Shown one piece after another: positions 1 to 16,054 of a stretch of 16,054 nt of DNA. The stretch spans positions 1-16,054 of IMG/VR virus record IMGVR_UViG_2703718862_000008; one strand, given 5' to 3'. The DNA comes from a virus. Taxonomy: Duplodnaviria > Heunggongvirae > Uroviricota > Caudoviricetes. Positions within the stretch are counted from its first letter, which is position 1; the number at the start of each line of letters is the position of its first letter. The notes under the pieces were generated by a model that worked only from the letters and a program-made list of their open reading frames with translations, was not told where the DNA came from and searched no databases. The position numbers were made by a program, and so were the translations under genes.

Positions 1-198
1 TCACTGCGGAAGGCGTCTGTAACAACCGAACTGATAGTCTGCCAGACCCGCCATAACCAGCTGGGTCAGTATTAACTGGCAGCGTTCGCGTGAAAGGTAA
101 GTATTCTGCGCAATCTCCCCGACTGTCGCCGGGTAGGTGACGCTTAATTCATTAAACACCACTCTGGCGGTTTCTGTCATATCCTGCTGTTTCAGCAT
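1..198 (-). CDS. hypothetical small protein (65 aa), possibly winged-helix; first gene downstream of the Q-associated terminator
   Basis: Stop TGA at 1-3 and ATG at 196-198 (MLKQQDMTETARVV...). The track ORF extends to 333 but 198 is the first ATG with a sensible position. No family recognised by eye. Confidence 0.35.
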   Translation of the reverse strand: MLKQQDMTETARVVFNELSVTYPATVGEIAQNTYLSRERCQLILTQLVMAGLADYQFGCYRRLPQ

Positions 199-321
199 GT
201 CTTTTTCCCTTTTCCGGTTAACGTGACACACCAATAACTCTTGTCGAAAAAGCCAGCAACCTGAAAGAACGGTATTAATGACCACCAGCGAATTTATTGC
301 GCTGCTGTATATTACGGACAC

Positions 322-343
322 AAAAAAAACCACCTTCCGGTGG
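322..343 (-). terminator. intrinsic terminator on the - strand, about 100 nt downstream of the Q-like gene; candidate tR'-type terminator
   Basis: + strand reads caaaaaaaac caccttccggtgg at 321-343. On the - strand this is a hairpin CCACC-GGAA-GGTGG (343..330) followed by eight T (329..322). Confidence 0.55.
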
Positions 344-440
344 CTTCCTTGTGCGAAAAAACTTGCATTTCGCCTCGCGATACAGCTTTGCGAAGCTTAC
401 AGGAATTCAAGCTGTTTCTGCGTAAAAAAGCAAGCTTTTT

Positions 441-971
441 TTATCGAAATGAATCGTGCATAGGTACATAAAGCATGTGTTCAGCCACGGCTAACCAACC
501 TGCAATACGTTTCTCACATGTGCTGAAACACCATTCCGGGTGAGTACGATTTAAACATTCTGCCATTTTTCTCTTACTCATTCCCCGTCCTTCGTACCTT
601 TGCCGGAGAATATTGATTAGCCCGGGATATTCCCCAAGCACCTTACTGATAACGCGATCAATAATCAACGCCTCTGTGTCTGTACAATGTGACAACCAGC
701 TCTTCTGCTTTCCTCTTGTCATATCCCGAAAAAATGCCTCAAGTTCCGGTTTTTCCAGCCCGGATTTCTTCATTCTGCGCAAAACCTCATTAACTGCTGT
801 TTTCGTCAGCTTTTTCGAAACCAGTAACCGGTTAAACATATTTCCGGATTTACCCCCACCGATATACGACCACCGCCCCCACATCCGTAATTTCCCCTGG
901 ATCCAGACTGCTTCCAGCGTGTTCAGGCGTAAATGTTCGCCGCTTTTGCCTGTAATTTCCGGATATATCAT
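441..971 (-). CDS. late-gene antiterminator Q-like protein (176 aa)
   Basis: Lies directly downstream of rusA at the end of the early-right operon, the canonical Q position. WG.W motif (LRMWGRWSY) and a C-terminal Cys/His cluster resemble Q21/QuuD-type antiterminators as I recall them. ATG at 969-971 is 8 nt after the rusA stop; the track start at 983 is a TTG. Confidence 0.5.
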   Translation of the reverse strand: MIYPEITGKSGEHLRLNTLEAVWIQGKLRMWGRWSYIGGGKSGNMFNRLLVSKKLTKTAVNEVLRRMKKSGLEKPELEAFFRDMTRGKQKSWLSHCTDTEALIIDRVISKVLGEYPGLINILRQRYEGRGMSKRKMAECLNRTHPEWCFSTCEKRIAGWLAVAEHMLYVPMHDSFR

Positions 972-979
972 ATTTACGC

Positions 980-1339
980 TCACTCACTCTCAATTTTGTA
1001 AATCTTCACACCCAGCCGTCCACCAGATACTGGCTGACCACGTACAATATTGATTTCATCAAACTGCTCGTCATCAATGAGCACTCCCGCATGCGTCAGC
1101 GCATCCAGCGGTGCTTTCAGAATGTTGTCCAGGTCGCGACGACGCTTATCCGGTGGCTCTGCAATCACCTTTATCACCAGCCTTCCGGACAGGCTTAATT
1201 TCAGCCGCTGCTGGCGAACAATAAGCGCCACAGCCCGGCGATAACGCTTTCCCTCCTCCGAGATAAAATATGTGCTGCCACGGCGTCGCCAGTAAGTGTT
1301 CACCGTCGGCGGGTAAGGTAAAACCAAATCTATGAGCAT
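980..1339 (-). CDS. rusA: Holliday junction resolvase RusA (119 aa)
   Basis: ATG at 1337-1339. The motif PDKRRRDLDNILKAPLDALTHAGVLIDDEQ matches the RusA catalytic core (E. coli RusA has [30 protein letters not shown] in my recollection). Confidence 0.85.
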   Translation of the reverse strand: MLIDLVLPYPPTVNTYWRRRGSTYFISEEGKRYRRAVALIVRQQRLKLSLSGRLVIKVIAEPPDKRRRDLDNILKAPLDALTHAGVLIDDEQFDEINIVRGQPVSGGRLGVKIYKIESE

Positions 1340-1351: not shown

Positions 1352-2401
1352 TTACCCAAGCACGCCAGTTGCAAAGGCGTGATCAAGAAAACGAAAAATT
1401 AAATCAATCTGAGAACCATGATTTTCTTCGAACGCCAGCGGATCCGCATGAAGTTCGTTGTGATGTTCCCGGCACAACGGTAGCGTGAAAATATCGTGGG
1501 CCTTTGTTCCCATCCCTCCCTGACCGTGACCAATCAGGTGATGGGGATCGTCGGCTGGCTGACCACAACACGCACACGGCTGTGTCTTCACCCAGCGCGT
1601 ATATTTCTCATTTACCCAACGGCGACGTTTAGGTCGCCTCATGAAAGATTCCGGAGACTCCGGATCAACGGTGATGCATACCACCGTCTTTTCCTGTGGT
1701 GGGTTCTGTTGCTGGCGGGCGTGAGACGGCGGCGCAATATTTTTTGTGCGCTGTTTCAGTATGCTGGTGGCGGTCTGCTCTCCCGGTATGATGTCGCTTT
1801 CGCGATACACCGAGCGGATTTTTTCCGCACGTAACCCCAGAGAACGACGTAATACTGCCTCCGGAAGCGCGTCCGCCACCTGATTGCAGACCGCCCACCA
1901 GGATAATTCAGCCAGCGACAATTCCCGCTCCTGCGTGCCATTCATTGCATGGCGTATGACGTCAATCATCCATGCTGACAGGTTTTGATGAGCAAGTTGC
2001 CCGAGTGATTCGGATGTCTGGTCACGCAGCTGGTTGTCACAGTGCCAGCACAACACCATCGAGCCAGCGCCATAACGGTGAATGACGGTTTCACTGTGGT
2101 GATAATCGCCGTGTGGCCACTGGCAGGATTTAACATGGCGCAGTAACCAGTCAGACAATGCGCCAGCGCCACCAGCAGCACGAATCACTCGTTCGTCGCT
2201 GAAAAATGGCAGTAATGATTTATCCTCCGCCAGCGGCTGGCGAACGGCAGGAACGACCCCGGACGGCAGATTACGCATGCTTTTCGGTTCCGGCTCCACC
2301 AGTACCCGGGTATTTTGGAATACCGGCATGGATTCATGGCCCGGCTTAACGATCACCAGCCCGAGTTCTGGCACAAGAACAGGTCGAAGTAATACCCGCA
2401 C
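1352..2401 (-). CDS. ydfU: YdfU-like prophage protein (family I recall as DUF968) with a C-terminal HNH/NinG-like Cys-His cluster (349 aa)
   Basis: GTG start at 2399-2401 preceded by GGAGGT with a 3-nt spacer and placed 1 nt after the upstream stop (translational coupling). C-terminus carries CACCG...HHLIGH...CREHHNELH. Length and position match the Qin ydfU slot. Confidence 0.7.
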   Translation of the reverse strand: MRVLLRPVLVPELGLVIVKPGHESMPVFQNTRVLVEPEPKSMRNLPSGVVPAVRQPLAEDKSLLPFFSDERVIRAAGGAGALSDWLLRHVKSCQWPHGDYHHSETVIHRYGAGSMVLCWHCDNQLRDQTSESLGQLAHQNLSAWMIDVIRHAMNGTQERELSLAELSWWAVCNQVADALPEAVLRRSLGLRAEKIRSVYRESDIIPGEQTATSILKQRTKNIAPPSHARQQQNPPQEKTVVCITVDPESPESFMRRPKRRRWVNEKYTRWVKTQPCACCGQPADDPHHLIGHGQGGMGTKAHDIFTLPLCREHHNELHADPLAFEENHGSQIDLIFRFLDHAFATGVLG

Positions 2402-2402: not shown

Positions 2403-2681
2403 TTACCTCCAGATACGTTGCTGGAATGTGCGGGATGGACGCGGTGGGCGCTCGGAGTAAGGGAGCCTCACAGAGATTATCCAGTGCAGTCGGTCGAGGC
2501 TGAGGTCTTTCTGAAACTCGTATCCGCGCCTGCGGTAGCACTGAATTAACCATTCAGCTTGTTCTTCAGTACATGGGGGATGCTGGTACCAGTCAGATTT
2601 AAATGCGTGAGAGCGCCGCCCGTGCCTGCTGGCAAAGACGGCTGAATTATCAGAATTGTGTGATTTGGTATCGTGCGCCAT
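2403..2681 (-). CDS. hypothetical Arg-rich protein (92 aa from ATG 2681); occupies the rem-like position between hokD and ydfU
   Basis: ORF ends with TAA at 2403-2405, overlapped by the SD of the next gene. The track start at 2810 is GTG without an SD; the first ATG is at 2679-2681 with only a weak SD. Start is uncertain. Confidence 0.4.
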   Translation of the reverse strand: MAHDTKSHNSDNSAVFASRHGRRSHAFKSDWYQHPPCTEEQAEWLIQCYRRRGYEFQKDLSLDRLHWIISVRLPYSERPPRPSRTFQQRIWR

Positions 2682-2848: not shown

Positions 2849-3004
2849 TTACTCCTCAGGTTCGTAGACTGTGAAGACAGCGACCTCCGTCTGGCCGGTT
2901 CGGATTCGTACCTCGCAGAGGTCTTTCCTCGTTACCAGTGCCGTCACTATGACGGTTAAACAGATGACGATAAGGGCGATTAGCATCGCCTTTTGCTGCT
3001 TCAT
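2849..3004 (-). CDS. hokD: Hok-family membrane toxin (51 aa), HokD/RelF-like
   Basis: Product MKQQKAMLIALIVICLTVIVTALVTRKDLCEVRIRTGQTEVAVFTVYEPEE has one TM helix and matches my recollection of HokD almost residue for residue. GGAG lies 9 nt upstream of the ATG at 3002-3004. An in-frame ATG 19 codons upstream (3061) gives the 70-aa track ORF. Confidence 0.8.
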   Translation of the reverse strand: MKQQKAMLIALIVICLTVIVTALVTRKDLCEVRIRTGQTEVAVFTVYEPEE

Positions 3005-3295
3005 AGCCTGCTTCTCCTTGCCTTTCGGCACGTAAGAGGCTAACCTACGTGTGTAGAGCATAGATATGGCATCAGATTAATGTTAAGCGTCTTGCCGGAC
3101 GCGCAATGTTAACTGGGGCTTTTCTCTATCTGCCTTTTGGTATTCATGCCTGAGACAGATAGCCTCAAGCACCCGCAGCAATTCTACTTAACTATCCTTT
3201 CCCCGCAAATCGTTTTTATCCCCAGCGACAAATCGAATACACCACCAGCGCCACCGCCATTGCGATCCCTACCGTTGTGAATGCCTCAGGCCAGG
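3005..3295 (-). promoter_or_regulatory. hok leader/regulatory region (expected promoter, mok-type upstream translation start, possible Sok-type antisense RNA on the + strand)
   Basis: About 290 nt between the upstream gene stop and the hok ATG. Presence of regulatory RNA is inferred from hok/sok biology; I could not place a convincing Sok promoter or terminator by eye. Confidence 0.3.
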
Positions 3296-3640
3296 TCATC
3301 GTAAAACATCCTCTGCGCTTATCAGTCCGTTTCGCTTCAGGTAGTCCATCGCCTTACCCGGCAATTTACAGTCCGGCTTCGTTTTCCTCAGTTGCCAGGT
3401 TAACTGCTTTACCAGCATGGTTAACTCGTCGACCAGACGCTGATGTCCCACTGGTTTGTATTCATGCAATTTACCGGCTGGCTCTGCTGCCAGCGATGCC
3501 AGTGCGATTTCCAGAACAGCAATATCCATCTTATATGTGCGGATGATGTCATGGTCGATTGTGCCCGGTATGCACAGTCTCTGTGCTTCAATAGTCTCCT
3601 CTGCGTGAGCTATTAACTGCTCTCTGGTAAAAGTGGTCAT
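3296..3640 (-). CDS. hypothetical protein (114 aa); N-terminal domain paralogous to the gene at 4154-4579
   Basis: ATG at 3638-3640 overlaps the upstream stop (ATGA). N-terminus [13 protein letters not shown]...[10 protein letters not shown] parallels MTELTKEQLIEEA...IALTSLEAEP. Confidence 0.6.
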
Positions 3641-4152
3641 GCCGCGCTTCCTTCTTGCTTATTAACGATTACACCGTCATATATTTCATTAAGGTGTCCC
3701 CTCAACTCCATGCGCCTTAATGCAGACAACATGTAATCGCATTCAACCTGCTTATTTCCAGTAAATGGCTTATCGTCAGGATCACCCCAACAGCAATTAC
3801 CCTTGGGCCACCCATGTACTTTCCGTACTCTTCCGTTAACAACGTGAAGTAATCCCCAGCCAGGTGGTAAATCCTCAATTGAAATAATTCCCGGCTCACT
3901 AATAAAGAATCTCCAGTCGCCCATGCCAAGAGAGGGATTTTTACGGAAACGCTTTTTTCTATCTGCCAACAAGTCAGCACGAGAACACTTCGCCTCTATC
4001 AGGCATGATGCTGAATTTCTGAATCCCATAGCATCTGGTTGTTCTCCAGTACTGGTTACAGCAACAAAGCGGTCATGAAAGCAAACCTTGAACCCGTTGC
4101 GCTTAAGGAACCTGTACGCAATCTGACAGAGTTCGCGGTGTGTTAACGCCAT
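3637..4152 (-). CDS. PD-(D/E)xK-type nuclease-like protein (171 aa)
   Basis: Motif EQPDAMGF...[20 protein letters not shown] fits a D/E-x-PD...(D/E)-x-K restriction-endonuclease-fold signature. AAGGAG lies 7 nt upstream of the ATG at 4150-4152; stop overlaps the next start. Confidence 0.55.
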
Positions 4153-4153
4153 C

Positions 4154-4579
4154 TCATTCTCCTTTGATGCGAATGTTTACAACCTGACAAACCTCTTTGA
4201 GTACCCAGTCAACAGCGTCTTTCCACGCTCCAGTCTCAACTGGCGGATTCTCACGTTTTACTTGTTCATAGAAGTGCACAGCTTTAACCAGTCCTTCAGG
4301 TACTACAGGCACTGGCGGCATGCGATACAATGGAGTAACACAACGCGAAGCCTCATATTTATCTGACGGACGCTGAAATATCTCACCGAACCCATATTTT
4401 TCAATATCTCGCAGTTCCTCGTCGTCAGTCCATGCCACCGGTTCTGCTTCCAGCGATGTCAGTGCAATTTTGAATAACTCACCCTCTACTCGTGCCACGC
4501 CTGAATTGGGATGGCATTTCGCAATCGCTATTTTTAATTTGGCTTCTTCGATTAATTGCTCTTTTGTTAATTCAGTCAT
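4154..4579 (-). CDS. hypothetical protein (141 aa); N-terminal paralog of 3296-3640, C-terminus ends IRIKGE
   Basis: ATG at 4577-4579. Shared N-terminal motif described above; C-terminal IRIKGE is encoded by an 18-nt sequence repeated at 5037-5054. Confidence 0.6.
   Translation of the reverse strand: MTELTKEQLIEEAKLKIAIAKCHPNSGVARVEGELFKIALTSLEAEPVAWTDDEELRDIEKYGFGEIFQRPSDKYEASRCVTPLYRMPPVPVVPEGLVKAVHFYEQVKRENPPVETGAWKDAVDWVLKEVCQVVNIRIKGE
4158..4175. repeat. 18-nt module-junction repeat TCTCCTTTGATGCGAATG, copy 1
   Basis: Exact repeat of 5037-5054. On the - strand it encodes IRIKGE at the end of one gene and supplies AAGGAG as the SD of the next. Confidence 0.7.
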
Positions 4580-4674
4580 TTTTCATTACCGCTCTTTCTG
4601 GCGGCCTCCTGATGTTCTGAGGGTGCAGAAATCCCTCCGGCTAAGGATTAAATTTTTAACAGTTCTAAATTTAA

Positions 4675-5031
4675 TTATTCAGTTCTGGATTTTGTCGCCC
4701 TGCGTATCCGCGCTTTCGCGTTACGCTCAATCTGAATTAGCTTTTCTATATTTTTTCGCCTTTCCCGCTCCTCCTGGCGCAAGTGCCTTACATCATCTGC
4801 CAGTCTGGTTTCTCTTTTCGCCACAGAGAGCATCCAGTCAAATGGCTCCACAACTGCACCGCAGATTTTACAGCGGACCTGACGCTCTTTTTCGTCAACC
4901 AGGACAGAGGCGTGATGACAATATGGTCTTTCCGATGGCTCATAAAGAAAATTAACCTGATTACGAGGGTCATCCTCTTTTACCGGAAATAAAACGATAT
5001 TGCTTAACTCATCCTCTGGTTTTATTTCCAT
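4675..5031 (-). CDS. hypothetical zinc-ribbon protein (118 aa)
   Basis: ATG at 5029-5031 preceded by AAAGGAGAGGAG. CHH...(17)...CKIC cluster; basic C-terminal tail. Confidence 0.5.
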   Translation of the reverse strand: MEIKPEDELSNIVLFPVKEDDPRNQVNFLYEPSERPYCHHASVLVDEKERQVRCKICGAVVEPFDWMLSVAKRETRLADDVRHLRQEERERRKNIEKLIQIERNAKARIRRATKSRTE

Positions 5032-5470
5032 GCTCCTCTCCTTTGATGCGAATGCCAGCGACGCGTAATGCGTGTTCTAGGTCAATCAGGTAAAGCCAAC
5101 TGCCATTTTCTTTAGGTATCATGACATGTCGCTCATCTGCATTTATCGGGTGTCCATATCGAAGGTCGTAGCGAGTCGGTAATTGAACTTCCCGCGCTTC
5201 CAGTTCAGCAAGACGCTTGCTCCCATCAGAGATAACGCCTTCGTAATACTCACGCTGCTCGTTGAGTTGTGATTTTGCTTCTTCCAGTCCATCCAGCAAA
5301 TCAGCGATAATATCCGCTTCCCGATGACGGATGTGACGCTTAAACGCAGCAAGAGCCGCATCACAATCCCGTTCAGCATTTGGGCTGTCCGGGATAGCCT
5401 GATACCACGCCAGCGTCGACTGATAGTTTTGTGCTGCCTCACGAAGCGCCTCATAGTTAACCTCTCTCAT
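5009..5470 (-). CDS. hypothetical protein (153 aa), C-terminus GIRIKGE
   Basis: ATG at 5468-5470 overlaps the upstream stop (ATGA). Acidic, helical-looking sequence; no family assigned. Confidence 0.55.
   Translation of the reverse strand: MREVNYEALREAAQNYQSTLAWYQAIPDSPNAERDCDAALAAFKRHIRHREADIIADLLDGLEEAKSQLNEQREYYEGVISDGSKRLAELEAREVQLPTRYDLRYGHPINADERHVMIPKENGSWLYLIDLEHALRVAGIRIKGEEHGNKTRG
5037..5054. repeat. 18-nt module-junction repeat TCTCCTTTGATGCGAATG, copy 2
   Basis: Exact repeat of 4158-4175, in the same coding and SD context. Confidence 0.7.
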
Positions 5471-6971: not shown

Positions 6972-7634
6972 TCAGACAAAACCAGCCGCTTTCCGGCGCT
7001 CATATTCCTGTTTCAGTAACTCAATTGGCGTTGGCCCTGGCGGGTGTTTTGGCCCTTCCAGTTGTCGTCGCACTGGCGGAACACTCATGCCGTTACCAAC
7101 ATTCTTTGCCCATTTGGTCAACAGTCGTTCTGCAAGTCGTTTCAGCTCACTTTCAGTCATCTGACGTTCAATCCCTCTGGTGCGCATCTCGAGGCAAATG
7201 TGGTACAGCACAGGCTGTGGCCACGGGTATTTATCACTCCCGTCGTATCGCCAGGATTCATTGCGCCAGCGCCGGTACTCTTCCATCACTGCATCCACCG
7301 TAAGACCAAATGGATTTGCCCCACTCTCCGAAATCAGTGCAACAAACTCAGCCAGGTCCGGGGGCCACGTTTCACCCGCCCGGCAGCGGTCCATGCACTG
7401 ACGACAGACCAGACGGATTTGCTGTTCAGTCATCGCACCAATCTGGGCAATCCAGAGCTTCGAAGGTGCGGCCCCGTTCTTCTGAGTCCAGCGGTTCGAA
7501 TACACCTCCCCCATAAGCTCCCACAGCTTCCAGGCCGTTTCCGTTGCTGATAAATCCGTTTTCACGTTCCCACTGTTCGCGTGATGCCCGGATTTCCTGA
7601 ACTGCCCGTGATGCCGTGCCACCTGATGCTGCAT
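6972..7634 (-). CDS. replication protein P-like (helicase loader), start uncertain
   Basis: C-terminal half (YPWPQPVLYHICLEMRTRGIERQMTESELKRLAERLL) resembles lambda P as I recall it (YPWKSNAHYWLVTNLYQNMRANALTDAELRRKAADEL). The full ORF overlaps the O-like gene by 209 nt; alternative ATGs are at 7514 and 7433. Confidence 0.55.
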   Translation of the reverse strand: MQHQVARHHGQFRKSGHHANSGNVKTDLSATETAWKLWELMGEVYSNRWTQKNGAAPSKLWIAQIGAMTEQQIRLVCRQCMDRCRAGETWPPDLAEFVALISESGANPFGLTVDAVMEEYRRWRNESWRYDGSDKYPWPQPVLYHICLEMRTRGIERQMTESELKRLAERLLTKWAKNVGNGMSVPPVRRQLEGPKHPPGPTPIELLKQEYERRKAAGFV

Positions 7635-8439
7635 GGCTTACCCCCTTGCTGACTGGTTTTGCCTGTGCCCTGACGTGCTGCACGTGGCGGGCAAATTTCT
7701 GCTCCCACTGAACCTGCGTGAAAACCTTCCCCTCCGCCATCCAGTAATCCCGGAATGCGGCAAGCTCTGCAGGTGTAAATTCCGGCTCAGGCAGAGCCAT
7801 ACCCCACACAGCTGCCCGTTGTCGAAAATCCGGCGACGGCTGCCAGACAGTGGTCATCGAAAATTTCCCGATCGGTTCGCTCAGGCCGTCCAGGTATTCA
7901 GGTTCGGCTGTCTGCAACGGCGCACCATGCGACTCACTGGTAGGAATACTCTCGCGTTCACGCACGTTATGTGTGGGGTTTAATTCTTTTAGATCTGTAT
8001 CTTTATTAGTTGCTTTTGTGTTTGCGTCATGTTCAAACACAACACCAACATTTGTTTGAACACCTGTTAAATCTCTCTCTTGTTTTGTTTGAACATATGC
8101 TTCCTTTCTGCTTCTTCTGGCCTGAACAGATGCTTTTCCGGCGGCTGATTTTTTGGTCAATTTTTCCCTGACTGATGCCAGATCTTCCTCAATCCGAAGA
8201 TGCACCCATTCATCGCCGTTATCGCAAAAAAACTCCCGCAAGGATGGTTCCACATCAGCCCATCGCTCGTTAGTCAGACGGGAAATTTTTGCCAGCCTGT
8301 TTTTAGGTATTGGTTTCCCTGTTTGCCAGTAATTGAACATCAGCAACAAATACGCACCGTGCTCCTCTGCGGACAAATGCATGGTGTCAGCCAGGTAATC
8401 AGCTATGTACAGTTGCATGTATGGTAATGCGGCCATAAT
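7426..8439 (-). CDS. replication initiation O-like protein: YdaU-type N-terminal domain (family I recall as DUF1376) plus DnaT-like C-terminal domain (337 aa)
   Basis: ATG at 8437-8439 with GAGG 5 nt upstream (the track start at 8490 is TTG). N-terminus MAALPYMQLYIADYLADTMHLSAEEHGAYLLLMFNYWQ; C-terminal segment FSMTTVWQPSPDF...YWMAEGKVFTQVQWEQKFARH resembles the DnaT C-terminus from memory. Confidence 0.65.
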   Translation of the reverse strand: MMAALPYMQLYIADYLADTMHLSAEEHGAYLLLMFNYWQTGKPIPKNRLAKISRLTNERWADVEPSLREFFCDNGDEWVHLRIEEDLASVREKLTKKSAAGKASVQARRSRKEAYVQTKQERDLTGVQTNVGVVFEHDANTKATNKDTDLKELNPTHNVRERESIPTSESHGAPLQTAEPEYLDGLSEPIGKFSMTTVWQPSPDFRQRAAVWGMALPEPEFTPAELAAFRDYWMAEGKVFTQVQWEQKFARHVQHVRAQAKPVSKGVSHAASGGTASRAVQEIRASREQWERENGFISNGNGLEAVGAYGGGVFEPLDSEERGRTFEALDCPDWCDD

Positions 8440-8522: not shown

Positions 8523-8960
8523 TCAATGCACCACAACAGACTCGCCGGATGACCCGCCGTCGCTGAAATACGCTTTCCGGTAAACTGCCTGGACTGCATC
8601 ATCATGCGCATCAATTGCCGTGCTCAACGCTTCCTGGGCCGCCAGTAATGCACGGCGCTCAACAGTGTCAAAAATACTGAGGTGATAACGCAGTTCACGC
8701 GGAAGAACAGTCAGGATAGCTGGAATTAGTGCCTGAATTTTTTCAACAGCATCAGGCGTATCCTTTTCAAGCCAGCGAAAAATATTTTGTATGTTCAATC
8801 CAATACCCTCTGTCGTAGAGGTGTCATGCATTGGTGGATAAGTCATTTCAAGCTGAAAATATGCCGTCGCTATATCATCAGCGATTTTTTTGCGCCCTAC
8901 CCTCGGATAAAGCAGCCACGCATTCATCGCCATGCGGATGTGCTCATGCTTGATTTTCAT
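8523..8960 (-). CDS. ydaT: YdaT-like (CII-like) protein, 145 aa
   Basis: ATG at 8958-8960 overlaps the cro-like stop (ATGA). MKIKHEHI... N-terminus and the position after the Cro-like gene match the Rac ydaS-ydaT arrangement as I recall it. Confidence 0.6.
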   Translation of the reverse strand: MKIKHEHIRMAMNAWLLYPRVGRKKIADDIATAYFQLEMTYPPMHDTSTTEGIGLNIQNIFRWLEKDTPDAVEKIQALIPAILTVLPRELRYHLSIFDTVERRALLAAQEALSTAIDAHDDAVQAVYRKAYFSDGGSSGESVVVH

Positions 8961-9217
8961 GAATCAACTCCCGCCGCTGCTTGTGCGTTAGCCTGATACT
9001 CAACAGGTAAACCATCGGTTGGATTAGGGTATTTATCAGGGCGCAATTCATGCGGAGTTACTCCCCAGTCAAGCGCCTCACATGCTGGTATAACCTCCTC
9101 CGCTGGCACTCGTTTTTTAAACCACCCACTTATGGTTTGCGGTGTTTTACCAAGACGACGCCCTAATTCTGATTGGCTCATTATTGACAGGATTTTCACT
9201 TGAGTACTTTTTTGCAT
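8957..9217 (-). CDS. Cro-like HTH regulator (YdaS/DicC family), 86 aa
   Basis: ATG at 9215-9217 with GGAGGG 5 nt upstream. HTH QSELGRRLGKTPQTISGW and a conserved ELRPD segment. Divergent from the repressor gene. Confidence 0.7.
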   Translation of the reverse strand: MQKSTQVKILSIMSQSELGRRLGKTPQTISGWFKKRVPAEEVIPACEALDWGVTPHELRPDKYPNPTDGLPVEYQANAQAAAGVDS

Positions 9218-9247
9218 GTTTCCCTCCGAACTTTACGATGACACCGA

Positions 9248-9290
9248 TAATTACAAATTTAAACTTAAATTTCAACTTCTATTTGTAATG
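9248..9290. promoter_or_regulatory. OR-like operator/divergent promoter region between the Cro-like and repressor genes
   Basis: AT-rich inverted repeats AATTACAAATTTAA (9249-9262) and ATTTGTAA (9281-9288). Candidate - strand promoter: -35 TTGAAA (9275-9270), 16-nt spacer, -10 TAATTA (9253-9248). Confidence 0.5.
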
Positions 9291-9343: not shown

Positions 9344-9736
9344 ATGATCTTTGTAAAACGCCTTCAGCAGGTGTTGCAGGAATTGAATATAAACCAGTCA
9401 GAGCTGGGAAGACGTCTTGGTGTAAAACCCCAATCCGTGCAAGGTTGGTTGAAAGGCGTGATGCCAAGAATGGATAAACTGGAAAAATTAGCAGAGCTCT
9501 CACAACATCCCGTCCATTGGTTCTTTATGGAAGAAGAAACTCTCGGCGATAAAATGGCTGTATCCAGTAATGACAACCAACCGCAACTTACAGAACAACA
9601 ACGAAAAATCATATCGCTTTTAGATGAGTTACCTCAAAGCGACGCAGAGCAGATCATTCGTGATATGGAGCAAAAACGCGATTTCTATAAACGGAAACTT
9701 GAAGAGTTACTGCGGCAGAAAAACAAAACTGCCTGA
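9344..9736 (+). CDS. DicA-like prophage repressor (HTH_XRE N-terminus, helical C-terminal domain, no peptidase domain), 130 aa
   Basis: ATG at 9344 with GAGGGG 5 nt upstream (the track start at 9338 is GTG). HTH QSELGRRLGVKPQSVQGWLKG; C-terminal segment resembles DicA from memory. Confidence 0.7.
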   Translation: MIFVKRLQQVLQELNINQSELGRRLGVKPQSVQGWLKGVMPRMDKLEKLAELSQHPVHWFFMEEETLGDKMAVSSNDNQPQLTEQQRKIISLLDELPQSDAEQIIRDMEQKRDFYKRKLEELLRQKNKTA

Positions 9737-9782: not shown

Positions 9783-10142
9783 TTATAATCCAACCAGGCT
9801 TTCCAGGGGGATACCAAATTGATTATGAAGACGGCGAATCATTGGTAACGTAAGGCTTCTGGTACCATTCAACACCTCATAAACCCGATTTTTTTTCCCA
9901 ATTGCGGGTTCCAAATCTTTCACAGTCAGCCCCTGCTGTTCCATGCGAAATCTTATAGCTTCAATTGGGGATGGTGGCTCAATGGGATAATGTTTTTTTT
10001 CATATTCCTCTATTAGCAAACACATCACCTCAAAAAAATCCCCCTCAGGCGTGTCAATTTCGGGCTCATTGTCGAACATGGGTTCAACAGCACGCAACGC
10101 GGCTTCATAATCTTGCTCTGTACGAATAGGTTTGATGTTCAT
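9783..10142 (-). CDS. higA: HigA-like HTH antitoxin (119 aa)
   Basis: ATG at 10140-10142, 2 nt after the higB stop. C-terminal HTH IGKKNRVYEVLNGTRSLTLPMIRRLHNQFGIP resembles E. coli HigA (YgjM) as recalled. Toxin-first order is typical of higBA. Confidence 0.7.
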   Translation of the reverse strand: MNIKPIRTEQDYEAALRAVEPMFDNEPEIDTPEGDFFEVMCLLIEEYEKKHYPIEPPSPIEAIRFRMEQQGLTVKDLEPAIGKKNRVYEVLNGTRSLTLPMIRRLHNQFGIPLESLVGL

Positions 10143-10144: not shown

Positions 10145-10447
10145 TTACTCCAGTTCGATGGTATCAGCATCAATAGCATCGTATTCCTTGTGGTTTCCGA
10201 TGAATTTAACAAATACCCATCCTCGCTGATACGCAATTGCAACAATTAAACGGTAATGATTACCTTTTATGTTGAATACCACGCGCCGGTTTTTCAATAT
10301 ACTGGCCGTTCGGTATTGTACCTTTATGTCTGCTGGGCTTTTCCAGTCAGCTTTTGCCGCCTCATCCACCCATGCCCTTAGCGGTTGTTCTGCATCAGGA
10401 TTCTCCGCCCAAAAATCCCTGAGTGTTTTAACTGAGATAATCTTCAT
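10145..10447 (-). CDS. higB: HigB-family (RelE-fold) mRNA interferase toxin, 100 aa
   Basis: ATG at 10445-10447 (the track ORF extends upstream to 10492). MKIISVKTLRDF...RRVVFNIKGNHYRLIVAIAYQRGWVFVKFIGNHKEYD aligns with K-12 HigB ...HYVFNVGGNELRVVAMVFFESQKCYIREVMTHKEYD from memory. Confidence 0.75.
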   Translation of the reverse strand: MKIISVKTLRDFWAENPDAEQPLRAWVDEAAKADWKSPADIKVQYRTASILKNRRVVFNIKGNHYRLIVAIAYQRGWVFVKFIGNHKEYDAIDADTIELE

Positions 10448-10490: not shown

Positions 10491-10544
10491 AATTACAAAT
10501 TTAATAATAAACATGTTGACCAGTTAAATTTTAATTTGTAAATT
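10491..10544 (+). promoter_or_regulatory. OL-like operator and early-left promoter
   Basis: AATTACAAATTTAA (10491-10504) and ATTTGTAA (10534-10541) bracket -35 TTGACC (10516-10521), 17-nt spacer, -10 TAAATT (10539-10544) on the + strand. Confidence 0.45.
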
Positions 10545-10723
10545 GTATCCATAAACCCACCCCGCCCCACAGAACGCAGGGCAATACTTCGAGTTACCCG
10601 GCAGTGGTCAGGGGTTAAGTAGCCAGCCCGAGGCGTAAGAACATGACGGCAGGGTTCAACTTTAATAACTATGCAGCAGGTTTTTGTTCCGCTCCCCCGG
10701 CGTTAAGGGGAAATGAGGTCAGC

Positions 10724-10876
10724 ATGGATACTATCGAGCTTGGCAACAGCGAATCTCTGGTATGCGGCGTGTTTCCCAACCAGGACGGCACGTTTACCGC
10801 GATGACGTATACCAGAAGCAAAACGTTTAAAACTGAAGCTGGCGCGCGTCGCTGGTTAGCCAGAAACACTTACTGA
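10724..10876 (+). CDS. ydfA: YdfA/YdaF-like small protein (family I recall as DUF1391), 50 aa
   Basis: ATG at 10724 with GAGG upstream. MDTIELGNSESLVCGVFPNQDGTFTAMTYTRSKTFKTEAGARRWLARNTY. First gene of the + strand operon, as ydfA follows dicA in Qin. An alternative start at 10643 gives 77 aa. Confidence 0.6.
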   Translation: MDTIELGNSESLVCGVFPNQDGTFTAMTYTRSKTFKTEAGARRWLARNTY

Positions 10877-10887: not shown

Positions 10888-11262
10888 ATGGAATTTAAAG
10901 ATTTACCAGTACCATTCCAGGAAATGGCATCGAATGTGGTTCGCTCTCAACTGGCGACTCTTGACCTGAGTACCGTAGAAAAAGAAACAATCGACAATAT
11001 ATCCGGTAACGTACGCCGAGCCTTTATCGGGCTGTACGAAGAGAAGCAGCTCTCTGATAACCAGGATTTACATGAAAAATACTTTCTGGAATTAATGGAC
11101 ATCATTAATAAAGGATTTGGCTTGTTAATGAAAAAGAAAGGGATTCGAATAGCTCCCCTTGAAAATCATTTTACAGCAAGCAGTATTAATTCCTGTGATT
11201 TAAAGCATCACACATCCGATGGGAAAGTTGAATCAAACAACAAAATATCAATTAATCATTAA
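10888..11262 (+). CDS. hypothetical protein (124 aa), AT-rich 3' half
   Basis: ATG at 10888 with GAGGT 5 nt upstream (the track start at 10876 overlaps the upstream stop). No recognisable family. Confidence 0.5.
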   Translation: MEFKDLPVPFQEMASNVVRSQLATLDLSTVEKETIDNISGNVRRAFIGLYEEKQLSDNQDLHEKYFLELMDIINKGFGLLMKKKGIRIAPLENHFTASSINSCDLKHHTSDGKVESNNKISINH

Positions 11263-11566: not shown

Positions 11567-11624
11567 TTTCTGGTGACGTTTGGCGGTATCAGTTTTACTC
11601 CGTGACTGCTCTGCCACCCTTTTT
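11567..11624 (+). ncRNA. dicF: DicF small regulatory RNA (about 53 nt mature) plus U-tail
   Basis: tttctggtgacgtttggcggtatcagttttactccgtgactgctctgccaccc followed by ttttt matches the DicF sequence as I remember it. It sits immediately upstream of dicB as in Qin. Confidence 0.8.
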
Positions 11625-11806: not shown

Positions 11807-11995
11807 ATGGAAACGTTATTACCAAACGTTAATACGTCTGAAGGTTGTTTTGATATTGGTGTTCTGCTCAGTAACCGGGAGTTTACGGAAGATGCCATTA
11901 AGATGAGAAAATATGAACCTTATCTTCTCAATGATAATTCCATACTTTCCAGAATTGCCCTTCTTGAACTTGGTATTATCGGAGAACAGCAGTGA
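11807..11995 (+). CDS. dicB: cell-division inhibitor DicB (62 aa)
   Basis: METLLPNVNTSEGCFDIGVLLSN... matches the DicB N-terminus as recalled (MKTLLPNVNTSEGCFEIGV...). GAGG lies 8 nt upstream of the ATG. Confidence 0.8.
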   Translation: METLLPNVNTSEGCFDIGVLLSNREFTEDAIKMRKYEPYLLNDNSILSRIALLELGIIGEQQ

Positions 11996-12180
11996 CTTCA
12001 GCATTTGCACTGGTGATGACCGTTTTTCTTATAACGGGTGAGCCACAAAATGTGATTACCGGAATTTATGACAGTAAGTCATCCTGCATTCAGGTAAGGG
12101 ACGAACAAAAAATCCCCGGTGAATGCCTCCCGTTAAAAAAAGTATCGCTGAACCTGAATAACGAAATACCGGCTGGATAA
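11992..12180 (+). CDS. ydfD: YdfD-like small hydrophobic protein (62 aa)
   Basis: GTG at 11992 overlaps the dicB stop (GTGA). Hydrophobic N-terminus FALVMTVFLITG. Position downstream of dicB matches the Qin ydfD slot. Confidence 0.5.
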   Translation: MTSAFALVMTVFLITGEPQNVITGIYDSKSSCIQVRDEQKIPGECLPLKKVSLNLNNEIPAG

Positions 12181-12275: not shown

Positions 12276-14747
12276 ATGAGTAAAGTCTTTATTTGCGCCG
12301 CTATTCCTGACGAACTGGCAACAAGGGAAGAAGGCGCTGTGGCTGTAGCCACAGCCATTGAAGCTGGCGACGAACGCCGTGCTCGAGCAAAATTTCACTG
12401 GCAATTCCTGGAACATTATCCGGCTGCTCAGGACTGCGCTTATAAATTTATTGTCTGCGAGGATAAACCCGGCATACCCCGCCCTGCCCTCGATTCCTGG
12501 GATACCGAATATATGCAGGAAAATCGCTGGGATGAGGAGTCAGCTTCCTTTGTACCGGTCGAACCTGAATCCGATCCGATGAACGTCAATTTTGACAAGC
12601 TGTCCCCTGAAGTACAGAACGCAGTCCTGGTTAAATTCGACACATGCGAAAACATCACCGTTGATATGGTGATTAGCGCACAGGAATTACTACAGGAAGA
12701 CATGGCAACATTCGGCGGACATATCGTTGAAGCGTTTATGAAAATGCCAGAAGTTAACTCCATGTATCCTGAACTTAAACTGCATGCCATCGGGTGGGTT
12801 AAGCATAAATGTGAGCCTGGCGCTAAATGGCCTGAAATTCAGGCAGAGATGCGCATCTGGAAAAAACGCCGCGAAGGTGAACGCAAGGAAACCGGAAAAT
12901 ACACGTCTGTTGTTGATCTCGCCCGTTCCAGAGTAAACCAACAGAACACTGAAAACGCTGCTGAAAAAAACGGAGCTGTCACTGTTGCCGTTCGCCGCGA
13001 ATACAAACAGACATGGAAAACTCTCGACAATGAGCTGGCCTGCGCCCTCTGGCCCGGTGATGTGGATGCGGGAAACATTGACGGCAGCATCCATCGCTGG
13101 GCAAAAAATGAAGTTATCGACAACGACCGCGAAGACTGGAAGCGTATCTCGGCATCAATGCGCAAACAGCCTGAAGCACTTGGCTATGACCGTCAGATTA
13201 TTTTTGGCCTTGTCCGTGAACGTCCGATCGACATTCACAAAGATCCCGTGGCGCTGAACAAATACATCACTGAATACCTGACTACAAAGGGCGTGTTTGA
13301 AGATGAAGGAACAAATCAGAGCACAACTAATACTCTCCCGTCGCCAGTACCAGAAGCTGATGCAGTGGAAACGGCAATGCCGGACAACGAAAAAACCGAA
13401 TGCAAAGTGGAAGTCGAACCATCTGTAGAGCGTGAGGGGCCGTTCTATTTCCTCTTCACCGACAAGGATGGCGAAAAATACGGTCGCGCAAACAAACTTT
13501 CTGGTCTGGATAAGGCGCTGGCTGCCGGGGCAACTGAAATCACGAAAGAAGAATATTTTGCCCGCAAAAACGGCACATACACAGGTTCACAACAAAATAC
13601 TGATGCATCTGACACGACCGCACAACCAGACCTGGTAAAAGTTACCGCTGACGAAGTAAACAAAATTATGCAGGCAGCCAGTATCAGCCAGCCTGACGCC
13701 GATAAGTTGCTTGCTGCCTCTCGCGGAGAATTTGTTGCAGGGATTAGCGACCCGAATGATCCGAAATGGGTAAAGGGGATTGAAACCCGCGATTCTGTAG
13801 ACCAGAACCAGCAAGAATCGGAACAGAACGACCAGAAAGCGGAACAAAACAGCCCAAATGCGTTACAAAACGAGCCAGAAACGAAACAACCTGAACCAGT
13901 AGTGCAACAGGAACCGGAAAAGATCTGCACCGCCTGCGGTCAGACCGGCGGCGGCAACTGCCCTGATTGTGGCGCGGTGATGGGCGACGCAACATACCAG
14001 GAAACATTCGATGAAGAGTATCAGGTTGAAGTTCAGGAAGATGATCCGGAGGAAATGGAAGGCGCTGAACATCCACACAAGGAGAATGCTGGCAGCGCTC
14101 AGGATCACGCCAGCGATAGTGAAACTGGCGAGACGGCAGATCCCTTAATTACGGTGAACGGTCATCACGTTATCACATCCACCAGCAGGTTGTGGCACCA
14201 TCTGATGATTGACCTTGAAACCATGGGAAAAAATCCTGATGCCCCGATCATCTCAATAGGTGCAATATTTTTCGATCCGCAAACCGGAGATATGGGACCG
14301 GAATTTAGTAAGACTATCGATCTGGAAACTGCTGGCGGGGTCATTGATCGGGACACCATTAAATGGTGGCTTAAGCAATCACGCGAAGCGCAATCTGCCA
14401 TTATGACCGATGAAATCCCGTTAGATGATGCACTGTTACAATTGCGGGAATTTATCGACGAAAACTCCGGTGAATTTTTTGTTCAGGTCTGGGGAAATGG
14501 AGCCAACTTCGACAACACGATTTTGCGCCGTTCATACGAACGGCAGGGGATCCCCTGCCCGTGGCGTTACTACAACGATCGCGATGTACGCACAATCGTT
14601 GAGCTGGGGAAAGCCATAGACTTCGATGCCAGAACTGTTACCCCATTCGAAGGTGAGCGCCATAATGCACTTGATGACGCCCGTTATCAGGCAAAATACG
14701 TTTCAGCTATCTGGCAAAAACTGATCCCGAGTCAGGCTGATTTTTAA
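12276..14747 (+). CDS. large prophage exonuclease (823 aa): N-terminal/central region of unknown family, acidic linker with a CxxC...CxxC zinc ribbon, C-terminal DEDD-type 3'-5' exonuclease domain
   Basis: C-terminal motifs MIDLETMG (Exo I), WGNGANFDNTIL (Exo II) and ERHNALDDARYQ (Exo III) are read directly. CTACGQTGGGNCPDCG zinc ribbon. Occupies the exo/recE slot just upstream of xis-int. Confidence 0.75.
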   Translation: MSKVFICAAIPDELATREEGAVAVATAIEAGDERRARAKFHWQFLEHYPAAQDCAYKFIVCEDKPGIPRPALDSWDTEYMQENRWDEESASFVPVEPESDPMNVNFDKLSPEVQNAVLVKFDTCENITVDMVISAQELLQEDMATFGGHIVEAFMKMPEVNSMYPELKLHAIGWVKHKCEPGAKWPEIQAEMRIWKKRREGERKETGKYTSVVDLARSRVNQQNTENAAEKNGAVTVAVRREYKQTWKTLDNELACALWPGDVDAGNIDGSIHRWAKNEVIDNDREDWKRISASMRKQPEALGYDRQIIFGLVRERPIDIHKDPVALNKYITEYLTTKGVFEDEGTNQSTTNTLPSPVPEADAVETAMPDNEKTECKVEVEPSVEREGPFYFLFTDKDGEKYGRANKLSGLDKALAAGATEITKEEYFARKNGTYTGSQQNTDASDTTAQPDLVKVTADEVNKIMQAASISQPDADKLLAASRGEFVAGISDPNDPKWVKGIETRDSVDQNQQESEQNDQKAEQNSPNALQNEPETKQPEPVVQQEPEKICTACGQTGGGNCPDCGAVMGDATYQETFDEEYQVEVQEDDPEEMEGAEHPHKENAGSAQDHASDSETGETADPLITVNGHHVITSTSRLWHHLMIDLETMGKNPDAPIISIGAIFFDPQTGDMGPEFSKTIDLETAGGVIDRDTIKWWLKQSREAQSAIMTDEIPLDDALLQLREFIDENSGEFFVQVWGNGANFDNTILRRSYERQGIPCPWRYYNDRDVRTIVELGKAIDFDARTVTPFEGERHNALDDARYQAKYVSAIWQKLIPSQADF

Positions 14748-14814
14748 TGTTCAACCCATATCGCCGCCCACCAGCTATAGTGGCGGCGGTCATGCTGTAA
14801 AGGCACGTGACCAC

Positions 14815-15057
14815 ATGTACGAATTAACTCTATCTCCAGCAGAGATTAAAGAGATCACGAAATACGAGCGATACACAAAACAGCAACACCAGTTAAGACT
14901 GCACGGCATCCCATTTGTAATCGGTCCTAAAAACGAACCAATAGTTCTACGCAGGGATATTCCACACGGACTGACAACGATGCCAAAAACATCTGAACTG
15001 GTTTCTGCTGAACCCGATTTTGAGGCACTGAACAATGGGAAGACCAAGAAAAAATAA
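14815..15057 (+). CDS. putative excisionase / small DNA-binding protein (80 aa)
   Basis: Immediately upstream of int and overlapping its start by 23 nt, the typical xis position. Not similar to lambda Xis by eye; the SD is weak. Confidence 0.4.
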   Translation: MYELTLSPAEIKEITKYERYTKQQHQLRLHGIPFVIGPKNEPIVLRRDIPHGLTTMPKTSELVSAEPDFEALNNGKTKKK

Positions 15058-16054
15058 AAAAGATAATGTACTGCCACCGCGGGTTAGATCGAATGGTTAC
15101 AGTTACGTGTGGAAACCAGAAGGAAGTACAAGAACTATAGGGCTAGGAAGAGTGCGGAAAACCAGCGTAGCTAAAGTCTGGCAAAATTATGAACTGGAAA
15201 AAGCAAAACTCCACAACATAATGACCGTAGCTAAATTATGGCACATGTTTATGGACTCCCCTGCATTTACAGAACTGGCCCCCCGAACCCAAAAAGATTA
15301 TCGACAACATCAGAAGGCGTTGCTGATGGTATTCGGAAAAGTGCTTGCTGATAATGTCAAAACTGAGCAGGTAAGAATTTTCATGGATAAACGAGGGCTT
15401 GAGAGCAAGACCCAGGCAAATCATGAACTGGCAAGCCTGAGTCGAGTATACGGGTGGGGATATGAGCGTGGATACGTGAAGAATAACCCATGTAAAGGAG
15501 TCAGAAAATTCTCTCTTAAAGCCCGCACTGTTTACATCACCGATGAACAGTATGCAGCGATATATGCGGAAGCAATTCCACAGTTACGCATTGCAATGGA
15601 GATTTCCTATCTCTGTGCGGCAAGGCTCGGTGATGTGCTTGAGTTGAAATGGCAGGATATTATGGATAAAGGGATCTACATTGAGCAAAACAAAACCGGC
15701 ACCAAACAAATCAAGGAATGGTCACCGCGATTACGTACAGCGATCCAGTTAGCCCGAAATGTATCTTCCTGTACATGCGAATATGTGATCAATACAACCA
15801 AAGGCGGGAAAGTCATAGCTAAAACGCTGAACAACTGGTGGAATCAGGCTAAACGCTCAGCCGAGCAAAAAGTTGGCGTTCCGTTCGGGTGCAATTTTCA
15901 CGACATAAAAGCCAAGGGGATCTCAGATTACGAAGGCAGCAGTCGCGACAAACAAATTTTCAGCGGGCATAAAACAGAAAATCAGGTGTTGATTTACGAT
16001 CGTAAAACAAAAATCACACCAACACTGGATCTGCCGCTCGTGGTTAGCAAGTAG
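15035..16054 (+). CDS. int: lambda-family tyrosine integrase (339 aa), complete; stop is the last codon of the window
   Basis: N-terminus MGRPRKNKKDNVLPPRVRSNGYSYVWKPEGSTRTIGLGR parallels lambda Int MGRRRSHERRDLPPNLYIRNNGYYCYRDPRTGKEFGLGR. Box I RIAMEISYLCAARLGDVLELKW; box II FHDIKAK...GHKTENQVLIYDRK with the catalytic Tyr present. Confidence 0.85.
   Translation: MGRPRKNKKDNVLPPRVRSNGYSYVWKPEGSTRTIGLGRVRKTSVAKVWQNYELEKAKLHNIMTVAKLWHMFMDSPAFTELAPRTQKDYRQHQKALLMVFGKVLADNVKTEQVRIFMDKRGLESKTQANHELASLSRVYGWGYERGYVKNNPCKGVRKFSLKARTVYITDEQYAAIYAEAIPQLRIAMEISYLCAARLGDVLELKWQDIMDKGIYIEQNKTGTKQIKEWSPRLRTAIQLARNVSSCTCEYVINTTKGGKVIAKTLNNWWNQAKRSAEQKVGVPFGCNFHDIKAKGISDYEGSSRDKQIFSGHKTENQVLIYDRKTKITPTLDLPLVVSK

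Follow-up and report, generated by a model that had tools for sequence, protein, structure and literature searches.

A probable mosaic: the early arm of a lambdoid prophage at serT of Escherichia coli and the modules it shares with Qin, Rac and circulating prophages

In the literature on the Escherichia coli K-12 prophage Qin, the small RNA DicF is described as acting on ftsZ, DicB as inhibiting cell division and YdfD as causing lysis. The dicBF genes are widespread in E. coli prophages, and a 2016 study of about 2000 phage genomes detected neither DicB nor DicF (PMC5069750). For prophages of the CP-933P type, a CII-like role of YdaT has been described (PMC9986795; PMC8630535), and the literature on Shiga toxin-producing E. 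coli (STEC) already lists prophages at serT and yccA (PMC8767318; PMC8065619). Here we analyze a stretch of 16,054 nucleotides of viral DNA (IMG/VR record IMGVR_UViG_2703718862_000008, positions 1 to 16,054; "the window" denotes this whole stretch), which an initial annotation had described as an apparently intact relative of the arm of the defective Qin prophage. It is highly likely that the window is the complete early half, from the Q gene to int, of a lambdoid temperate prophage located in serT, the tRNA-Ser(UGA) gene of E. coli, and that this half is a recombinant mosaic of circulating modules. Some of these modules also occur in K-12 Qin and Rac, which are decayed carriers of them and not direct ancestors of the element.

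The gene map was built from a six-frame listing of open reading frames (ORFs) together with Rfam, Pfam, PHROG and NCBIfam scans, and gene identities, ORF integrity, operator motifs, the attachment (att) site and mosaic relationships were all computed here. Contig LPUK01000015.1 (GCA_001609265.1) is 100% identical to window positions 2276-16054 and is the sole public contig with the exonuclease sequence of the window; it starts about 843 bp left of the window, with the late genes on another contig, and judging from relatives the break probably falls within a DNA methylase gene. Beyond int, on the right, this source contig carries yccA, tusE, yccX and rlmI, and an alignment with K-12 places the return to host sequence 142 nt past the stop codon of int, at serT nucleotide 29. 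The att core is a 65-bp segment (serT nucleotides 29-88 plus 5 nt) located 142-206 nt beyond the window end; the att site that the initial annotation proposed to seek beyond position 16054 is thus present, as a 3' part of serT. ARAGORN found no tRNA on this flank; the att copy holds just the 3' 60 nt of serT, and the site was found via the K-12 alignment. In H1, the 41-kb prophage of the best matching complete E. coli genome (STEC strain 08_3449, NZ_CP074909.1), the 65-bp repeat occurs twice, in an intact serT at the far end of the prophage and beside int, and the copy beside int in the source contig is identical to those of H1. Two genes adjoin this site in the window:

14815..15057, plus strand: probable excisionase gene xis (Pfam DUF4224), overlapping the start of int
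15035..16054, plus strand: int, a tyrosine integrase of the Lambda-Int family, 339 amino acids (aa) (Pfam Phage_integrase; PDB lambda Int 1z1b, 1.4e-19, full length)

Genes in the equivalent position before homologous integrases are annotated as excisionases in ST64B, mEp390 and ZF40. The integrase combines the N-terminal arm-binding domain of the Lambda-Int family with the catalytic set, namely R197, K220, H290, H312 and the catalytic Tyr, and has Lys293 at the Arg-II position (the HxxR motif reads HDIK). We considered HDIK as an inactivating lesion and rejected this reading, since Lys is conserved at this position in integrases of isolated phages: in an alignment, the integrases of ST64B, mEp390, ZF40, Evi, 606R7 and BUCT708 also read HDIK or HDLK, and those of F10 and HK022 keep Arg. 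The shared Lys thus characterizes a subfamily and does not mark a defect. In the three cases seen, Lys-type integrases adjoin a serine-tRNA gene, which is serT in the source contig and in H1 and tRNA-Ser(CGA) in 606R7. Short repeats, CTTGGTATA / ACTTGGTATAC, are found outside the window on the phage side of attL and attR (L012 13780-13920 and L020 24520-24560; L numbers designate the loci compared here) and are candidate arm-type binding sites of the integrase.

Comparison with complete E. coli genomes places the window among a large number of related elements: 5124 of the 5426 genomes contain some part of it and 125 contain at least 80%, the best match, H1, covering 86% of the window at 94.6% identity. 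The prophages L016-L018 are 98.3-98.9% identical over window positions 1-10867 and have a different left arm beyond. Conversely, the serT prophages L004-L011 share identical integrase and xis genes with the window (99-100% aa for the integrase), and two of them, L006 and L009, have an exonuclease and a DicB with 100% and a YdfD with 98% identity, whereas the immunity and replication modules differ. Because its halves have near-identical relatives in different prophages, the window is one of many recombinants assembled from circulating modules. 'Lineage' is here a property of the modules and not of the entire arm, and E. coli lambdoid prophages of this ordinary kind have been described before.

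The relationship to Qin and Rac was assessed with blastn (word size 11) for the nucleotide sequences of the K-12 loci and with tblastn for proteins. The features of the window that have counterparts in Qin are as follows:

1352..2401, minus strand: YdfU (DUF968, HNH-like; Pfam DUF968 5e-77; PHROG 96), 83% aa and 83.5% nucleotide identity to K-12 ydfU
2403..2681, minus strand: 92-aa ORF (phrog_1212), 76% aa identity to the Qin region L002 15310-15585
2849..3004, minus strand: hok toxin gene, 51 aa (Pfam HOK_GEF 6e-22)
2999..3174, minus strand: complete hok mRNA leader and sok-target region (Rfam RF01794, 109.1 bits with a cutoff of 59, model positions 1-157 of 157)
10643..10876, plus strand: ydfA-like gene (Pfam DUF1391 6.9e-27), 85% aa identity to YdfA and 82% to Rac YdaF
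11568..11619, plus strand: DicF small RNA (RF00039; Rfam 70.1 bits versus a cutoff of 48)
11807..11995, plus strand: DicB cell-division inhibitor, 62 aa (Pfam DicB 3.7e-38, full length), 61% aa identity to K-12 DicB
11992..12180, plus strand: YdfD-like protein (DUF1482; Pfam 2.8e-15), 48% aa identity to K-12 YdfD
12276..14747, plus strand: YdfE-type exonuclease, 823 aa (Pfam Rv2179c-like 7.9e-67 at residues 641-813)

At the nucleotide level, the Qin blocks are 83.5% (ydfU with the 92-aa ORF, which is conserved beside ydfU and unannotated in K-12), 95.8% (hok), 89.6% (ydfA, whose homolog in the window probably has its true start at an internal ATG near 10724) and 84% identical (from the spacer upstream of dicF through dicF, dicB and ydfD into ydfE). 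The order ydfA...dicF-dicB-ydfD-ydfE is the same, at 84-90% nucleotide identity, and the ydfE homology ends exactly at the K-12 IS2 junction (window 13041 = L002 21844). This shared order, together with the precise stop at the IS2 junction, the ydfU-orf92-hok block (83-96%) and the retention in the window of a hok leader that K-12 hokD lacks, might be taken to mean that the window is the undecayed counterpart of Qin, that is, the same lineage without the IS2 insertion and the deletions. We consider this very improbable and the proposal largely refuted. Qin aligns to only 22% of the window, and the similarity of the products is limited even within the shared block, as the above values for DicB and YdfD show. 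The integrase shows about 23% aa identity to IntQ over 147 residues and no nucleotide match, and the element occupies serT beside yccA rather than the ydfJ (ynfP-rspB) site with an IntQ-type integrase. The DicA/DicC pair is missing from the window: the repressor is 22% identical to DicA (NCBIfam DicA, 49.9 bits versus a cutoff of 101), with no match to dicC. About 6 kb of nin and replication genes separate hok from the repressor gene and have no counterpart in Qin, rem is absent from the window, and each half of the window has far closer relatives in different prophages. By sequence comparison, many other prophages are at least as close to the arm as Qin is, and the mosaic reading is the one we follow below.

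Rac aligns to 12.7% of the window, in the ydaT/ydaU region (85%), the ydaF/ydaG region, the spacer upstream of kilR and the middle of recE. The alignment to Qin and Rac that the initial annotation had suggested recovers the shared modules, and the description as an intact relative of the Qin arm was overstated. The genes listed in that annotation are all present and open at the expected places according to Pfam and Rfam; as to their order, the resemblance to Qin holds for the ydfU-hok and ydfA...dicF-dicB-ydfD-ydfE blocks but not for the nin and replication genes, xis and int, which have no ortholog in Qin.

An in-frame ATG upstream, at 3061, extends hok to a 70-codon mok-like ORF, of which residues 15-70 are 96% identical at the aa level to the K-12 hokD region. 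The window combines the Hok ORF with a full structured leader containing the Sok target, and the Sok antisense RNA would come from the plus strand at 2999..3174. In K-12, homology ends 14 nt upstream of the hokD ATG, hokD having no leader, and no sok match was obtained with Rfam in Qin even at E<=0.1. In its hok leader alone, then, the window holds a Qin locus in undamaged form. A prophage hok/sok in Sp5 is a working toxin-antitoxin pair that speeds lysis upon induction (PMC8621323). The sequence context of the Hok Tyr47 codon (window 2861-2872) is TACG; a review of Hok toxins describes how the corresponding Tyr codon in hokC, hokD and hokE is recoded to Cys by A-to-I editing, a change that would permit a disulfide with Cys30. 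In L022, L024 and L028 (positions 1-1188), which share the ydfU-rusA-Q block, the hok position is taken, after a 216-aa ORF, by a 367-aa HTH_3 + Peptidase_M78 protein, an architecture that resembles the Xre-peptidase B component of PD-lambda-2.

DicF exceeds the Rfam gathering threshold, and its 5' 45 nt, including the pairing region, are identical to K-12; the single substitution, G-to-A at 11613, introduces one weakening mismatch into the terminator hairpin. The same variant is found in L009. In L007 (6581-6642), the DicF stem is altered on both of its strands (GGTGG / CCATC), in a pattern that looks compensatory, and L006 and L011 (about 6525-6606) have a shorter DicF-like hairpin that keeps the 5' pairing region. 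A full-length but sub-threshold Rfam match to STnc100 (window 11617-11839, plus strand; 36.8 bits, cutoff 47, E 5e-05) spans the dicF-dicB spacer and the start of dicB, as it does in K-12 Qin (L002 20433-20642, 34.4 bits). The spacer itself has a homolog in Rac, in the sequence that precedes kilR, beside the annotated kilS small RNA. Many serT prophages, and PPompW, encode a DicB with 100% identity to that of the window. The claim of at least three toxic modules (Hok, HigB and DicB/DicF) stands, with the YdfD-like lysis protein as a fourth.

The exonuclease consists of the YdfE_N and YdfE_C regions recognized by Pfam, followed by a C-terminal DEDD 3'-5' exonuclease domain, and its first 255 residues show 91% identity to the K-12 ydfE pseudogene, in a match that runs as far as the IS2 junction. 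The annotated exonuclease is a complete ORF, as had been proposed, but of the YdfE type and without a RecT partner. Identity with RecE was rejected: the NCBIfam exoVIII model scores 289 bits against a cutoff of 1269, in the middle region only, and the C-terminus is a Rv2179c-like DEDD domain; the RecE 5'-3' nuclease domain is lacking and there is no recT in the window. An imperfect 21-nt tandem repeat (window 13806-13889, 4 copies, 67% matches) falls in an acidic, Gln/Pro-rich linker preceding the DEDD domain.

The central part of the window has the layout of a lambdoid control region, flanked by replication genes and, farther left, by a late-gene regulator:

441..983, minus strand: Q-like late-gene antiterminator (Pfam DUF1133 1.5e-110, Phage_antitermQ 1.2e-08; PHROG 753 'anti-termination protein Q-like'); the start is placed at 971 in relatives, giving 176 aa
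980..1339, minus strand: RusA Holliday-junction resolvase (Pfam RusA 8.5e-17)
6972..7433, minus strand: lambda-P-like replication protein, 153 aa (Pfam Phage_lambda_P 3.7e-15), of equal length in relatives
7426..8436, minus strand: O-like, YdaU-like replication initiator (DUF1376 + DnaT domain, Pfam), the N-terminal 148 aa 95% identical to Rac YdaU
8523..8960, minus strand: YdaT, the functional equivalent of CII (Pfam YdaT_toxin 1.2e-10), 58% aa identity to Rac YdaT
8950..8967, no strand: YdaT operator TTGATT-N6-AATCAA, at the ydaS/ydaT junction
8957..9217, minus strand: YdaS-like protein, the Cro equivalent (Pfam YdaS_toxin 1.7e-08, 34.6 bits versus a cutoff of 30; HTH_3)
9247..9289, no strand: OR-like control region, with two ATTACAAAT copies in inverted orientation (9250-9258 and 9281-9289) that overlap divergent promoter-like sites
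9344..9736, plus strand: prophage repressor, 130 aa (Pfam HTH_3 6e-09; helix-turn-helix (HTH) domain only)
10492..10544, no strand: OL/PL-like control region, with operator half-sites at 10492-10504 and 10530-10541 flanking a promoter-like TTGACC-17-TAAATT

The early-region content is lambdoid throughout, with a CII equivalent, O/P-type replication genes, a Q antiterminator and xis-int beside att, and the repressor gene is divergent from the cro-like gene, with one motif at the predicted OR-like and OL-like operators. This 9-mer, ATTACAAAT, is present in 4 copies in the window versus 0.23 expected, and three of these lie in the two control regions, at 9250, at 9281 (minus strand) and at 10492-10500, the latter upstream of the ydfA-like gene; an inverted copy of the extended 12-mer TTACAAATTTAA with one mismatch lies at 10530-10541. 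In both control regions the motif copies overlap sigma-70-like hexamers. The single exact match to TTGATT-N6-AATCAA, versus 0.01 expected, occupies the position of a PRE-like promoter; in CP-933P, an identical motif in the same position was shown biochemically to be the YdaT site that controls the PRE-like promoter (PMC9986795; PMC8630535). The initial annotation had likened this immunity region to that of Rac. The resemblance holds for YdaT but not for the other two regulators: neither the repressor nor the YdaS-like protein gave a tblastn match to Rac at E<1e-4, so that no RacR-like repressor and no Rac-like YdaS were recognized, and BLAST matched the YdaS-like protein neither to Rac ydaS nor to Qin dicC.

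Drawing on the biology of lambda, CP-933P and Qin for regulation, expression and inducibility, we infer from the operator motifs and the YdaT site that two divergent early operons are under the control of the repressor. In the lysogen, this 130-aa HTH protein would bind the ATTACAAAT operators of the OR-like (9250-9289) and OL-like (10492-10541) regions and thereby silence a leftward PR-like operon, ydaS(cro)-ydaT(cII)-O-P-nin cargo-ydfU-rusA-Q, and a rightward PL-like operon, ydfA-orf124-dicF-dicB-ydfD-exonuclease-xis-int. Upon derepression, YdaS and YdaT would take the roles of Cro and CII, the O/P-like proteins would replicate the element, and Q would switch on late genes outside the window. 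The PL-like transcript would supply DicF, blocking ftsZ translation; DicB, blocking Z-ring formation together with its partner MinC; the YdfD-like lysis factor and the DEDD exonuclease; and Xis and Int, which would excise the element at the 65-bp serT core. The hok/sok and higBA loci would be self-contained addiction or defence modules.

The second of these loci lies between the repressor gene and the OL-like region, in the slot that rexAB occupies in lambda:

9783..10142, minus strand: HigA antitoxin, 119 aa (Pfam HTH_3; PDB HigA 5ycl/5ifg, 3e-09)
10145..10447, minus strand: HigB toxin, 100 aa, upstream of higA (Pfam HigB_toxin, PF09907, 1.6e-32; PDB HigB, 1e-06)

The presence of higBA, as initially annotated, is borne out: the toxin-first order, the 2-nt gap and the HTH antitoxin identify a type II pair from sequence, its PDB matches to E. 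coli HigB and HigA being distant. A perfect palindrome, AGTCCCA-TTT-TGGGACT, at window 10459-10475 is located 11 nt upstream of the higB start codon and about 17 nt from the first OL-like repressor site, and is a candidate autoregulatory operator for HigA or HigBA. The serT prophages with an identical integrase differ in what separates the repressor gene from the DUF1391 gene, with PaaA2-ParE in L004-L006 and probably L011 (where PaaA2 alone was called), HigBA in L007, L012 and the window, and nothing in L008-L010. The repressor-adjacent slot is thus a swappable site for toxin-antitoxin cargo in serT prophages.

In a PADLOC search, HigB matched PD-Lambda-2_A over its full length (3.5e-40) and HigA matched positions 1-119 of the 402 of PD-Lambda-2_B (1.7e-42), which raises the question whether higBA serves in phage defence, as a system of the PD-lambda-2 type, and is not simply an addiction module. 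Both the rexAB-like position between the repressor gene and OL and the occupation of the slot by PaaA2/ParE or nothing in other serT prophages are in line with such a role. However, PD-lambda-2 is defined by three components and is characterized by a B protein with an Xre HTH and a C-terminal peptidase, by toxicity residing in B, and by a P4-antitoxin-like C protein required for defence (PMC9519451), whereas the 119-aa HigA is without the peptidase domain and there is no third gene, the next gene being the convergent repressor gene. We therefore rejected membership in PD-lambda-2 proper and regard a defence function of this type as doubtful. Similarly unlikely, in our estimate, is the more specific proposal that higBA is a minimal PD-lambda-2 relative, with a promoter abutting the OL operators of the repressor, that gives the lysogen protection by abortive infection or against superinfection; if this were true, expression of higBA would be linked to the lysogenic state via the adjoining OL operators, and the slot would be a swappable site for defence cassettes (HigBA, PaaA2-ParE or empty) in serT prophages. 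PADLOC detected no other known defence system among the ORFs of unknown function.

The remaining genes of the window are cargo and small ORFs, most of them in the leftward operon:

1..333, minus strand: small ORF downstream of Q (phrog_331, E 3e-44), 96-98% identical in L001 and L017; the longest ORF here has 110 aa, and 65 aa are annotated in relatives
3296..5470, minus strand: nin-type cargo of five ORFs (PHROG and Pfam matches), all five 98-100% identical in L017
5467..6938, minus strand: DUF4406, DUF977 and DUF1627 genes (Pfam 5.7e-38, 2.1e-41 and 9.2e-99)
10888..11262, plus strand: orf124 (phrog_6937 1.6e-76), 99% identical in L008, in the ydfB/ydfC position and without a match in Qin or Rac

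The nin cargo comprises orf114, orf171, orf141, a zinc-ribbon orf118 and a 153-aa Ead/Ea22-like ORF. Two of these, orf141 (4154-4579) and orf114 (3296-3640), are the N-terminal and C-terminal parts, respectively, of one Ea22-like family (PHROG 660, phrog_660), and orf171 (window 3637-4152, minus strand) lies between them. The product of orf171 contains a PD...EAK motif, and it is this motif that suggests a PD-(D/E)xK nuclease; no match was found in Pfam, NCBIfam or PADLOC, a PDB sequence search gave nothing below E 0.26, and a single-sequence AlphaFold2 model (mean pLDDT 44.9) did not reach the quality that a fold search needs. In H1, an HNH endonuclease takes the position of orf171. The locus may be a slot for mobile nucleases or an insertion that split an Ea22-like gene.

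The coding density of the window is 88%, with a largest gap of 305 bp, and no IS element, frameshift or premature stop was seen in the 16 kb. Each ORF has a full-length, near-identical ortholog in other E. coli prophages, and Pfam models align over their whole length with Hok, HigB, DicB, DUF1133, DUF1627 and the DEDD exonuclease domain. The initial annotation was thus correct that there is no IS interruption and that the int and exonuclease ORFs are complete, and the closer comparison brought up no inactivating mutations in the arm. 'Intact' applies here at the level of ORFs and to the early arm only.

Several observations weigh against our interpretation of the window as the early half of a temperate prophage with a lambda-like switch. 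The late half of the prophage is not on contig LPUK01000015.1. The repressor has no S24 autocleavage (peptidase) domain, which makes RecA-stimulated self-cleavage unlikely. The promoter scan was overall no richer than shuffled sequence, and no iterons or origin were recognized in or near the O-like gene, where just two weak two-copy repeats were found. The mismatch in the DicF terminator stem (C.A) lowers its predicted stability, with a minimum free energy of -12.4 versus -15.9 kcal/mol in K-12. Finally, the late genes of H1 are defective, its head and tail genes being truncated by ISEc31 and an IS66-family element.

The state of H1 also bears on an alternative to which we give somewhat less than an even chance, namely that the arm belongs to a defective (cryptic) prophage whose early genes are kept by the host for their toxic or protective cargo, with disrupted late genes and no particles formed. 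This closest complete relative, at the same site, combines an intact early arm with the IS-truncated head and tail genes and the gene espK; moreover, the exonuclease gene of L011 is split, PPompW records include a frameshifted exonuclease, and the late region of the element itself lies beyond the break of the source contig. Against this, the 16 kb examined revealed no defect at all, and closely related arms occur in isolated phages: Evi, with a 97% identical integrase, and Tritos, mEp460_ev081 and HannyBb, which have dicF, at least Tritos and mEp460_ev081 also carrying dicB. An intact early arm does not prove a functional prophage. In the serT prophage of strain 08_3449 (L020 24395-43001 together with L001), espK, which encodes a type III effector, is located near the tail-fibre end, and the early arm is intact.

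The deposited phages also bear on the distribution of dicBF. dicF, mostly with dicB, is now found in PPompW prophage records and in several Escherichia phage records (Tritos, mEp460_ev081, HannyBb and several vB_Eco phages), so that the gap left by the 2016 study (PMC5069750) has since been filled. The toxic cargo of Qin (hok, dicF, dicB, ydfD and ydfE) is standard early-operon equipment of a large group of circulating E. coli lambdoid phages, K-12 retaining decayed copies of this cargo. This conclusion is already established and has little importance beyond annotation; the useful outputs of the present analysis are a clean gene map, the serT att site, the candidate operators and the caution against reading prophage function from an intact early arm.

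Taken against the known systems, the element shares with Qin ydfU, orf92, hok, ydfA, dicF (1 nt different), dicB, ydfD and the first 255 codons of ydfE, in conserved order and orientation. Qin differs in having relBE, ydfV, flxA and DicA/DicC immunity, and in having no replication genes, no xis, a hokD without leader and sok, and an unrelated IntQ at the ydfJ site. With Rac, the window has in common YdaT, the N-terminal part of YdaU (95%), the single family to which YdaF and YdfA belong, the spacer upstream of kilR or dicB, and the middle of RecE, which corresponds to exonuclease residues 262-626 at 40% identity; by contrast, the window has no RacR homolog, no match to Rac YdaS, no kilR, no recT and no RecE nuclease domain, and the integrase and site of Rac (ttcA) are different.

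The control region resembles in design that of CP-933P of E. coli O157:H7 (PaaR2-YdaS-YdaT with paaA2-parE2), which likewise has a short HTH repressor divergent from ydaS-ydaT, the TTGATT-N6-AATCAA operator at the ydaS/ydaT junction and a toxin-antitoxin pair beside the repressor gene (PMC8630535; PMC9986795). The two differ in that paaR2-paaA2-parE2 are co-transcribed in CP-933P, whereas higBA of the window is on the opposite strand, convergent with the repressor gene; the YdaT of the window is, moreover, just 48% identical to YdaT of the PaaA2/ParE prophages L004 and L005. Among phages and other prophages, Evi, mEp460_ev081, Tritos, HannyBb and PPompW share the Q/rusA/ydfU, replication, dicF (mostly with dicB) and exonuclease modules at 82-96% nucleotide identity, but each covers 30-45% of the window, the immunity region and nin cargo differ, and PPompW has an e14-type integrase at ompW. 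The serT/yccA prophages, that is, H1 and those of ED1a-type and other genomes (L004-L011), have the integrase (99-100% aa), xis, the 65-bp serT core and the overall order from Q to int in common with the window; those other than H1 differ from it in their immunity and replication modules and in the cargo of the toxin-antitoxin slot. H1 stands out among them with a repressor, ydaS, ydaT and higBA identical to those of the window, and departs from it in having ParD/ParE in place of hok/sok, the HNH endonuclease in place of orf171, and ydfC in place of ydfA and orf124.

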